Below, piece by piece: positions 4,301 through 5,715 of a DNA stretch of 64,000 nt. The notes under the pieces are model-generated. The model ran no database searches. It was given only the letters and a program-made list of their open reading frames with translations, and was not told the DNA's origin. Origin of the DNA: a virus; IMG/VR virus record IMGVR_UViG_3300046337_000201, positions 11,161 to 75,160 of that record, one strand, 5' to 3'. The translations under genes and the position numbers were made by a program. The number at the start of each line of letters is the position of its first letter. Within the stretch, counting starts at the first letter, position 1.

Positions 4301-5195
4301 CAGTAGCAGTAATTTGAGCAGCATTACAAATACTATCACCACCTATGTATGTAATTGCAGCTATTGAACTACCACCTCCACTACAAACCTCACTAGAAGT
4401 AGCACCATATCTAAATAATTGAGGAAGTGTTGTTGTGGTTGTCGTACTCGTAGTTGTAGGAGCCGCAGTTGTTGTGGTTGTCGTACTCGTAGTTGTAGTT
4501 GTAGAAATAGGTGGTGTTATACTAGTTGTAGTAGTCGTAGTACTAGTTGTACTAGGACATACTAAAATAGATGATACACTACCTAAAGAATTTAATTGAA
4601 CCGCTTGATTTTCTACATAATAATATTTAGTAGTATCTACTACAATAGGAGTAGTACCTGAAGCATCAGTATAAAGTATTGTGCTTAATCCTAAAGTACC
4701 ACTATAATAAACCCTAATATTATGAAGTCCACTTGTATTAGCAGCACATGCACTAGCTGCATCATTATAGCCTATAATAGAACCCACAATAGGATAATAT
4801 AAAAGGCTATTAGCAATTAATAAAGTCGTTGTAGTTGTCGTAGTACTAGTTGTAGGACATACGCAAGTTTCTATTTGACCATATATGTTTATATCGTCTA
4901 ATGTATATAAAAAAGTATCGGCTCCTATTGTTTGCGTACAAAAGAAACCAAAGCCTAAATTTGAAAAACCTTGTTGTAAACCTAATAAAGTACCATCATA
5001 TGTATTAAGATATGTAATTCCATTAATAACGATATTCCAACATCCACACCCTACATTTTCACTTGTAATATCCCATGTATACTTAGTTCTTGAATTGATT
5101 GAAGGATTATTTTCAGACAATAAAGGCACATCAATACTACAATCATTGGTATTGTTGGTAATTACAAATTGGAGTAGTTCGTTTTTAGTTGGCAT
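1308..5195 (-). CDS. Giant modular Thr/Ser-rich, Cys-rich surface spike/fibre protein
   Basis: About 12 Cys-containing beta domains separated by poly-Thr linkers; C-terminal modules ordered A-A-B-A-B-B. Confidence 0.7.
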   Translation of the reverse strand: MPTKNELLQFVITNNTNDCSIDVPLLSENNPSINSRTKYTWDITSENVGCGCWNIVINGITYLNTYDGTLLGLQQGFSNLGFGFFCTQTIGADTFLYTLDDINIYGQIETCVCPTTSTTTTTTTLLIANSLLYYPIVGSIIGYNDAASACAANTSGLHNIRVYYSGTLGLSTILYTDASGTTPIVVDTTKYYYVENQAVQLNSLGSVSSILVCPSTTSTTTTTTSITPPISTTTTTSTTTTTTAAPTTTSTTTTTTLPQLFRYGATSSEVCSGGGSSIAAITYIGGDSICNAAQITATEFYPLASGNYVIYDSYNGWIQYNKPDGIGFNSMTRIGGGCSLCSSVTTTSTTTTTTTILVWYTLYNCLTGATETSAQYPNGTFFANDRVVYGGTLFFRVINVQYTDPGGIQWFVTGTGAFGCPTTTTTTTTLPPVAVSLSVSCNNVGGTYLGKVTATISGGNGVYEILAGYVGSLSTYVSAGTNPFVISSPTAPYDGTLGLRNTLGGSDQFIVQVRDSLGTVASQSTPISCITTTTTSTTTTTTTFAFNVNASLVSDYDACNNPEYTTQPLTGNGSNICDSTYVTLPSTITADMSDNQTIYLEQRVSGVFSVATYQRVGTTSIANRIVVCSACVPPSTTTTTSTTTSTSSSTTSTTTTTTTFAFNVNASLVSDYNACNAPEYTSQTLTGNGSNICDSTYVTLTPTLTADMGDNQTIYLEQRVSGVFSVATYQRVGTTSIANRIVVCSTCVPPSTTTTTSTTSTTSSTSSTTSTSSTTTTTTQPPITYSFTAVCVGLNQTFTLNSLGGGDGTTYYASTTTYPDPLSAAAGATSLVSGGTRTYSSQPNGTRYIYVTSGTRSAPPSGGTICTTTTTTSTTSTSTSSSTTSTTTTTTTFAFIVNASLVSDYNACNAPEYTSQALTGNGANICDSTYVTLTPTLTADMGDNQTIYLEQRVSGVFSVATYQRVGTTSIANRIVVCSTCVPPSTTTTTSTTSTTSSTSSTTSTSSTTTTTTQPPITYSFTAVCVGLNQTFTLNSLGGGDGTTYYASTTTYPDPLSAAAGATSLVSGGTRTYSSQPNGTRYIYVTSGTKQTTPSNGTICTTTTTTTTSSTSTTSSTTSTSSTTSTTTQPPIGYSFTAVCVGLNQTFTLNSLSGGNGTYYASTTTYADPASAAAGATSLVVGGSVTYSSQPSGTRYIYVTSGTRSAPPSGGSICTTTTTTSTTTTTTTAAPTTYKYIATDCNTSTTTIYSSTDGGLNGITIQTSSTCYSLVLTTKGTAVGSLPSYIVIAGCGFCGV
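1933..3191. repeat. Near-identical direct repeat (about 560 bp, offset 699 bp) within the spike gene
   Basis: 1933..~2492 matches 2632..~3191; identical shadow ORFs at 2109 and 2808. Confidence 0.9.
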
Positions 5196-5715
5196 TATTA
5201 TCTTCTTTATCTACTATGTAAAAACAATAATCTTCAAAATAATCTAATCCAACCGAGTGTTCTAACTCTTGGAAATTACTATCACCTGATATTGTTGCTC
5301 CATGATTACGCATTAGGTTTCCCAAGAATGCAGTATTAGTGTATATTTTTAGGAACAAAGTTTGACCTGGCAACATCGTAAACGATAATGAACTATTACC
5401 ATTAAATGTTACTACTTCTTTTTCAGGATAGAAATACGCAGCACATTGAGCTTGATATGGGTCGATAGTAAATGGTAGTGAATGATTCACTTGATTACCA
5501 AAAGCATCAAAATCGGTATAGTAATATATTTGACCTACTTGGTCACAACTCGTAGAAGCAACATAGAAAAATTGAGCTTCATAATTAAAAGTCGTTAAAC
5601 TTTGAACTATTTGGTTGTAATTAATAGGGGTTGTGGTATCACCAAAGTCAAGAGGACACACCACCGATATATCGGCAACTGATACTTGTGTTACTATTGG
5701 TGTTAATATTGCCAT
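5185..5715 (-). CDS. Paralog of the candidate major capsid protein (minor capsid/vertex protein)
   Basis: DAFGNQ...TIDPYQAQ aligns with DANGNQ...TIDPYQQQ of 26144..26839 over about 100 aa. Confidence 0.7.
   Translation of the reverse strand: MAILTPIVTQVSVADISVVCPLDFGDTTTPINYNQIVQSLTTFNYEAQFFYVASTSCDQVGQIYYYTDFDAFGNQVNHSLPFTIDPYQAQCAAYFYPEKEVVTFNGNSSLSFTMLPGQTLFLKIYTNTAFLGNLMRNHGATISGDSNFQELEHSVGLDYFEDYCFYIVDKEDNNAN

Follow-up and report, generated by a model that had tools for sequence, protein, structure and literature searches.

The head of a spike and an adjacent capsid-candidate paralog without the first strand pair: a candidate split vertex module in an uncultured phage lineage

The locus and its two capsid-type proteins

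The stretch of DNA analysed here, referred to in the following as the window, comprises 64,000 nucleotides (bases 11161-75160) of a 75,160-bp virus record, IMG/VR record IMGVR_UViG_3300046337_000201. The genome is low in G+C and carries nearly all of its genes on the minus strand. Our subject is a pair of adjacent genes in it, of which the first encodes a protein of 176 residues, here called P, that is related to the capsid candidate of the same genome, and the second a spike of 1295 residues. An earlier note on this DNA had proposed that the N-terminus of the spike supplies strands that P lacks, so that the spike would dock into the shell by donor-strand complementation of an incomplete capsomer. 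The features on which we draw are the following:

5185..5715, minus strand: gene of P (P0002), 176 aa, a hairpin-less paralog of the capsid candidate with a predicted beta-sandwich core
5305..5631, minus strand: residues 29-137 of P, homologous to residues 104-213 of the capsid candidate (hhalign)
26144..26839, minus strand: gene of the capsid candidate (P0001), 231 aa, the full-length paralog
26612..26665, minus strand: residues 59-76 of the capsid candidate, YIVTVSNASNAAVTIDVF, its first strand pair, absent from P
1308..5195, minus strand: gene of the spike (P0003), 1295 aa, with a conserved N-terminal anchor, poly-Thr/Ser linkers and repeated Cys-containing modules
5118..5177, minus strand: residues 7-26 of the spike, the beta-hairpin LLQFVITNNTNDCSIDVPLL, the candidate for insertion in trans into the P sandwich
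4857..5087, minus strand: residues 37-113 of the spike, the strand TKYTWDIT and a small alpha/beta domain resembling FliD D2 and flagellin outer domains
1520..3596, minus strand: tandem modules of about 345 nt in the distal spike
5185..5195, minus strand: 11-nt overlap of the P stop and the spike start, ATGCCAACTAA, a site of tight coupling rather than of fusion

Judged by sequence, P is a true paralog of the capsid candidate. The two proteins align in BLASTP (E 5e-6, 27% identity over 109 aa), the profile of the capsid candidate matches P at 1e-10 and the reverse search succeeds at 2e-15 (hmmsearch), and a comparison of family with family in hhalign places residues 104-213 of the capsid candidate on residues 29-137 of P (Prob 99.3%, E 2.1e-20). 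The core that they share, consisting of a helix with the motif TYxxL followed by DxNGN, DPYQ and xDG...F, corresponds to no Pfam or PHROG model, and the 75-kb genome encodes no member of this superfamily besides P and the capsid candidate. As the earlier note had seen, the similarity starts only at the TYYNLL/NYNQIV helix. Ahead of this helix the capsid candidate has about 46 structured residues (58-103) and P 28, a difference that corresponds to approximately one hairpin, namely the first strand pair. Because a stop codon directly before the ATG of P closes the frame and leaves no N-terminal extension, and because the start of P, MA(I/L)xTP, is kept in its homologs, the missing strands are not an artefact of gene calling.

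The capsid candidate is abundant and evolves slowly, with 1047 near-length homologs, of which the 120 listed are all at least 78% identical; P has just four close homologs, and 169 representative clusters at the profile level. Among 150 listed representatives of the P family, 33 (within P0137-P0249) end in a C-terminal linker and a hydrophobic helix with a Lys-rich tail, which suggests that the sandwich is tethered to a viral membrane in these tail-anchored lineages. The capsid candidate, for its part, opens with an acidic, probably disordered leader of about 57 residues (26669..26839, minus strand), which precedes the conserved SQPY at the beginning of its first hairpin and may be a propeptide.

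Twenty-seven of the larger open reading frames (ORFs) were scanned against Pfam, and ten of these also against PHROGs. P, the capsid candidate and the spike had no match in either collection. A sequence search against solved structures and a tblastn search of a phage collection likewise gave no match, and in the ESM Atlas the capsid candidate received sub-threshold leads only and no model. The scans found glycosyltransferases, homing endonucleases, a PAP2 lipid phosphatase and polyvalent-protein domains, and no match to a terminase, portal, HK97 capsid or tail protein among the 27 ORFs (Pfam) or the ten (also PHROGs). We infer that the particle is tailless and contains a membrane.

The first 113 or so residues of the spike are a conserved virion anchor. 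Residues 7-113, approximately, align full-length with a module of about 110 aa, which comprises a hairpin (hxhxITNNTxxxIxhxLF), a strand (TxYxWDIT), a helix (aLNsLGhGhF) and terminal strands ending in YGxL, in this order; in the spike, the small alpha/beta domain formed by its latter part ends just ahead of the first poly-Thr linker. At least 110 protein clusters of 226-848 aa carry this module at residues ~7-120, and all of them differ downstream. A conserved module on otherwise variable proteins is typically seen in exchangeable receptor-binding proteins that attach to the virion by a shared domain. The start of these spikes is conserved as MAxKxEL, each of them has its own ATG, and N14 of the N-terminal motif is nearly invariant.

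This motif, which the earlier note had likened to the first strand pair of the capsid candidate, is thus real and conserved, and its likeness to the latter, though modest, exceeds chance when tested specifically. In hhalign, residues 53-77 of the capsid candidate pair with the profile of the spike hairpin (P-value 0.0013), with a score that was reached by two of 200 column shuffles. Furthermore, a hidden Markov model (HMM) of the hairpin, built without capsid candidates, has residues 62-76 of the capsid candidate as its best full-length match outside the seed (E 0.022 among 152 sequences). BLASTP found no hairpin match between the spike N-terminus and the capsid candidate, and a whole-profile hhalign of the spike head against it gave a P-value of 0.13. 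The orthology of the two hairpins rests more on position than on sequence.

Two further properties of the spike may be mentioned here. In the window (4857..5177) and at the other loci of the same arrangement, the spike heads have four near-invariant Cys positions (DC 18-19, CG 50-51, FFC 84-86, C111), which are absent from the single-chain fusions described below and with which Cys20 of P itself does not co-vary; this anchor is possibly a disulfide-stabilized form. The distal spike is built of tandem modules of ~115 aa, with periods of 345 and 348 nt and one pair that is 90% identical, and long Thr/Ser runs lie between them.

One module in four gene arrangements

We drew 84 loci from viral and metagenome collections, about 70 of which include the upstream DNA, and in all of the latter the module-headed gene is immediately preceded by a P-type gene (157-176 aa). 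The 11-nt overlap in the window, reported before, is confirmed, and overlaps of this length are among the commonest junctions. Among the relatives, the offset between the two genes is -20, -17, -11, -4, -1, +1, +3, +5 or +6 nt, in mixed frames, and in many of them the two genes are in frame, with one stop and one codon between them. Two outliers (+77 and +233 nt) resemble artefacts of ORF calling or a truncated locus. In the window, the spike frame is open for just five codons upstream of its ATG. These varying offsets and frames and the short open stretch point to translational coupling and not to a recoding fusion. At one locus (L080:2522-4235), a single P-type gene is followed by two consecutive genes that are each headed by the anchor module and that might be alternative spikes with an adaptor in common.

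A search for homologs in which the two proteins are joined, as suggested by the earlier note, was successful, and the module occurs in four arrangements in total. In the first, type A, to which the window, L001, L013 and most metagenome loci belong, P is followed by a spike that is headed by the whole module. In type C, P and the whole module follow each other in one chain; this arrangement comprises nine protein clusters (P0135, P0140, P0179, P0216, P0241, P0251, P0255, P0262 and P0271), of which P0179 runs on into poly-Thr linkers, as the spike does. The linker of P0140, GYKPKKELEEVTLYITNNT, parallels the split junction, NYLIDNE*GMAIKKELIQFTIVNST, so that fission or fusion would need little beyond a stop and a start codon. 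Type D (P0220) has the reversed order, with the module before P.

Finally, in type B (L002-L012, P0129), the module itself is divided: a protein of 223 aa consists of its first half, i.e. the hairpin and the strand TTQYQYTL, followed by P, and the downstream spike is headed by the second half only. This division is confirmed by a module HMM for which only types A and C were used: the 223-aa proteins cover its positions 3-47 (E 1e-8 to 3e-5), and the type B spikes its positions 52-121 (E 1e-14 to 8e-19). A global hhalign (Prob 95) aligns the 223-aa protein colinearly with the capsid candidate, with the two hairpins on each other, and P0247 and P0201 likewise have an extra N-terminal hairpin in cis. 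The order is therefore the same in the capsid candidate and in type B, namely hairpin, strand, own hairpin, helix and core, and P of the window begins at the own hairpin. Types A and C have the missing hairpin behind the core, either within one chain or encoded by the following gene, and this amounts to a circular permutation. All in all, P and the spike head very probably form one physical module.

Predicted structures and the docking of the spike

We modelled P alone with AlphaFold2 from an alignment of 90 sequences. In this model (mean predicted local distance difference test score, pLDDT, of 80), residues 33-130 are confident (pLDDT 86-96) and form one helix and six strands, while residues 1-32 are coil with no regular structure (pLDDT 56-72). 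P is thus predicted not to form a complete barrel by itself, and at the level of the model it appears to be an incomplete acceptor, in which the first hairpin of the capsid candidate is lacking and residues 1-32 are not placed. Its nearest solved folds are weak jelly-roll matches, led by nucleoplasmin-type pentamers (Z 5.0-5.3) and followed by the coat proteins of STMV, SPMV and XSV (Z 4.0-4.3), the PR772 penton-region chain 6q5u_R (Z 3.7, root-mean-square deviation (rmsd) 2.9, 74 residues) and picornavirus VP3 (Z 3.4-3.5); the jelly-roll assignment accordingly draws on weak matches, with Z at most 5.3. A Foldseek search against viral models gave no meaningful match (template modelling score at most 0.23). 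The penton protein VP9 of HCIV-1 and the spike P1 of PM2 are not among the listed structural matches, which is not evidence against a penton role.

In place of the pair of P and spike, we modelled the natural fusion P0140 (275 aa), again with AlphaFold2. Its alignment comprised the nine natural fusions, P-only sequences and eleven in-frame read-through translations of type A pairs, in which the one stop was read as Q and which served only as paired alignment rows. A mixed alignment, in which spike heads were added to a fusion protein, was discarded, since the heads were misaligned. The model has a pLDDT of 88.8 and a predicted template modelling score (pTM) of 0.69. Unlike in P alone, N-terminal strands (6-9 and 14-19) are ordered. 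The hairpin (161-169 and 175-179) has a pLDDT of 89-94 and lies between two looser loops (pLDDT 69 and 68), and the remainder, 193-274, is confident. Matches to beta-sandwich proteins, including the alpha-toxin C-terminal domain (eight entries) and relatives of the diphtheria-toxin R-domain, extend from residues 17-36 to residues 173-186 and hence over the P core and the hairpin (96-108 aligned residues, Z 3.5-5.1). By contrast, matches to FliD D2 and flagellin cover residues 189/193 to 275 only (83-85 residues, Z 5.0-6.3, rmsd 3.2-3.6). Two independent structure comparisons divide the model identically.

At the level of this model, then, the hairpin groups with the P sandwich and not with the rest of the spike head, and the module appears to be composed of two structural pieces, with a separate small domain that starts at the TxYxW strand. 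The idea of the earlier note, that the spike N-terminus donates strands, would in this respect apply to the hairpin and be too simple for what follows it, one strand and a separate alpha/beta domain of about 75 residues. Neither of the two outcomes that the note had named as speaking against its proposal was seen at the level of the models: P alone does not fold as a complete barrel, and of the spike head in the fusion, the domain of about 75 residues is separate while the hairpin groups with the sandwich.

Taken together, we propose the following mechanism. P would be a hairpin-less duplicate of a coat protein of the single-jelly-roll type and would most likely serve as a vertex (penton-type) adaptor for the spike. 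The spike hairpin (residues 7-26), which matches the first strand pair of the coat protein in position and pattern, would insert into the beta-sandwich of P in the particle, restoring the complement of strands that the coat protein has in one chain and attaching the spike, including its poly-Thr linkers and repeated distal modules, to the shell. Translation of the two genes would be tightly coupled. What distinguishes the lineages would then be no more than the point at which the polypeptide is interrupted: before the hairpin in type A, after the hairpin and the next strand, which moved to the N-terminus of P, in type B, and nowhere in the type C fusions, with the order of the domains swapped in type D. 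In type A, the hairpin would complement P in trans, and in type B, the TxYxW strand would complement the small domain of the spike. If the domain assignment of the model holds, some beta-element is complemented in trans in each split lineage. Donor-strand docking, as suggested by the earlier note, is consistent with the fusions, with the lineage that has the hairpin in cis and with the fusion model, in which sandwich templates span the P core and the hairpin (ranges ending at 173-186, in weak matches); it needs to be amended in that the spike N-terminus is more than donated strands. On balance, we favour the view that a hairpin inserted in trans links the spike and P.

Several points weigh against this interpretation. 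The placement of the hairpin comes from one AlphaFold2 model of a distant fusion, a homolog with about 30% identity, whose alignment included read-through rows of adjacent gene pairs; it was read from the end residues of weak matches (Z 4-5) and not from contacts, and a pTM of 0.69 is only moderate for inter-domain confidence. The hairpin motif, h-x-h-x-N-x-T, recurs at the family's own N-termini (E 0.04-0.3), so that sequence alone does not prove the orthology of the two hairpins. In the 33 of 150 representatives with a C-terminal membrane anchor, the anchor takes the place that the spike module has in the fusions, which makes the topology less certain. Among the matches of P, solved pentons do not stand near the top, the PR772 chain reaching only Z 3.7, and the virion type is deduced from the absence of tailed-phage matches among the scanned ORFs. 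Lastly, in at least 110 spikes the hairpin is conserved together with the strand and the small domain that directly follow it, as would also be the case in a self-contained domain.

The last point is also the main argument for an alternative in which there is one vertex or spike-base module, but the spike head of ~113 residues is self-contained and binds P by surface contacts, the docking of the hairpin being a prediction artefact. The head is described by a single HMM domain, and both the pTM and the weak matches that place the hairpin with P leave room for this explanation. However, type B cuts the module midway and has its first half on P, so that a self-contained domain would have to be rebuilt in trans anyway, and P0247 and P0201 carry a cis hairpin on P without the small domain. 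Moreover, the FliD-like matches consistently start at residues 189-193 and leave the hairpin out, and P alone leaves its 32 N-terminal residues unplaced. We thus regard this alternative as unlikely, while it is the one to be taken most seriously.

A different question is what P does in the particle. It could be an accessory of the spike, such as an assembly chaperone or a spike-borne subunit, with a fold derived from the coat protein and no part in the shell or vertex. Small accessory genes often accompany fibre and spike genes, P evolves much faster than the coat protein (four close homologs against more than 1000), and no solved penton matches it strongly. Yet P is the sole paralog of the coat protein, and an icosahedral shell with a single major capsid protein (MCP) needs a fivefold protein. 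Its gene precedes that of the spike, and the stable fusions of nine clusters join it to the anchor end and not to the distal end; one fifth of the family clusters are tail-anchored, which fits structural parts of the virion; and its best structural neighbours, the nucleoplasmin-type proteins, are pentameric jelly rolls. We therefore consider an accessory role improbable. These same properties, together with the precedent of HCIV-1 and PR772, argue for a vertex adaptor, and our assessment leans slightly towards P being the penton. In this sense, the 'incomplete capsomer' of the earlier note is retained as a fold that is predicted to be incomplete by itself, and is replaced, as to its role, by a vertex adaptor of the penton type as the likelier assignment than a capsomer of the shell.

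Programmed frameshifting or read-through at the 11-nt overlap could in principle join P and the spike in one chain. This would need no complementation in trans and would fit with the natural single-chain versions and with the many relatives in which the genes are in frame, one stop and one codon apart. It is very improbable, however, and was rejected, given the freely varying junctions (-20 to +6 nt), which do not fit a conserved recoding signal, the five open codons upstream of the spike ATG, where no slippery heptamer was seen, and the ATG and MAxKxEL start that each spike keeps.

The insertion of the hairpin in trans could also be given a stronger form, which we advance tentatively and rate somewhat below an even chance: the vertex protein might be an obligately incomplete jelly roll that finishes folding only once its first hairpin is provided by the receptor-binding spike, which would couple the incorporation of the spike to the assembly of the vertex, and the hairpin might have been moved repeatedly between genes, being found N-terminally in cis, C-terminally in cis as a circular permutation, and on the next gene. 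If this is true, the family is a natural series of split and permuted capsid-fold proteins.

Neighbouring genes and known spike attachments

Upstream of the P gene (5724..7732, minus strand) lie genes for a soluble protein of 166 aa and then for three single-pass membrane proteins of ~110-120 aa each, and the order of this run of four is kept across lineages (L001, L003 and L013, at 8100-10000); the membrane proteins may be membrane partners of the vertex. Directly downstream of the spike, there are methyltransferase and glycosyltransferase genes. Near the capsid candidate, a 274-aa protein (27226..28050, minus strand) has a Walker A (GKKGVGKS) and a Walker B motif (LLLIED); it has no significant match in Pfam (one sub-threshold match to DUF3835), and none in PHROGs or among PDB sequences. 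The PAP2-family lipid phosphatase (31036..31683, minus strand, E 1.7e-9) is located within the structural block, where it is unusual for a phage and in keeping with a lipid-containing particle. Up to four apparent homing-endonuclease genes are dispersed in the late region (10061..10819, 11701..12435, 30332..31036 and 33261..33995, minus strand), of which two are supported by matches (NUMOD3; phrog_314) and two are GIY-YIG-like by eye only.

With regard to known systems, the small domain of the spike resembles the D2-D3 domains of FliD, flagellin outer domains and peripheral domains of phage sheath and baseplate proteins at the level of the fold; this likeness (Z <8) may reflect a common arrangement, comes with no sequence relation and implies no function. 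The proposed docking itself is reminiscent of chaperone-usher pili, in which the N-terminus of the next subunit contributes the strand that an incomplete beta-sandwich lacks. There, a single strand inserts into an Ig-like fold and drives polymerization, whereas here a two-strand hairpin in a jelly-roll-type sandwich would join two different virion proteins, and there is no homology between the two systems. In the corticovirus PM2, the single chain of the spike P1 has a jelly-roll penton domain at its N-terminus and receptor-binding domains distal to it. P0179 and the other type C fusions share this layout, which the window splits into two genes; P1 gave no sequence match and, as noted above, is absent from the listed structural matches.

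The tectiviruses PR772 and PRD1 provide a further parallel. In PR772, the N-terminal base of the spike P5 (1-124) resembles P31 (1-126) and is a jelly roll built into the penton (PMC6750898), so that in PR772 and PRD1 the N-terminal domain of the spike and the penton are evolutionarily tied, as they appear to be here. In PR772, however, the spike contributes a whole jelly roll that replaces penton subunits, resulting in a heteropentamer, whereas the spike of the window has only a hairpin and an unrelated small domain. Furthermore, the MCP of PR772 is a double jelly roll, unlike the candidate in the window, which is probably of the single-jelly-roll type.

The fixing of spikes with mismatched symmetry at icosahedral vertices is known for few membrane-containing viruses, through strand locks seen by cryo-electron microscopy. 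The closest precedent among them is offered by HCIV-1 and HHIV-2, viruses of the vertical single-beta-barrel (Sphaerolipoviridae) type, which have an internal membrane, small transmembrane proteins under the vertex, and a penton that shares the single beta-barrel fold of the MCPs (PMC6414509). In HCIV-1, strand G of the jelly-roll penton VP9, a protein termed a universal adaptor, is paired with additional beta-strands that the spike complex contributes (PMC6414509). These viruses have no detectable sequence relation to the window, their structures are not among the listed structural matches, and they have two MCP genes in genomes of ~30 kb, as compared to one MCP gene in 75 kb. Moreover, the penton barrel of HCIV-1 is complete and the spike adds a strand to it, whereas P appears to be made without a hairpin that is present in the coat protein, and a hairpin is encoded in the spike gene. 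The locking of spike to penton by strands is already known from HCIV-1, and what would be new here is a variant in an undescribed virus lineage, in which we have identified the likely vertex protein and spike-attachment domain of the group. The same principle would here be recognizable in the sequences of unusually large phages of the tailless type, an abundant and uncultured lineage whose fused, split and permuted versions of the module are natural controls and offer an experimental system for fragment complementation of a capsid-type fold. They also bear on permutation by duplication and on the exchange of variable receptor-binding spikes on a conserved anchor.

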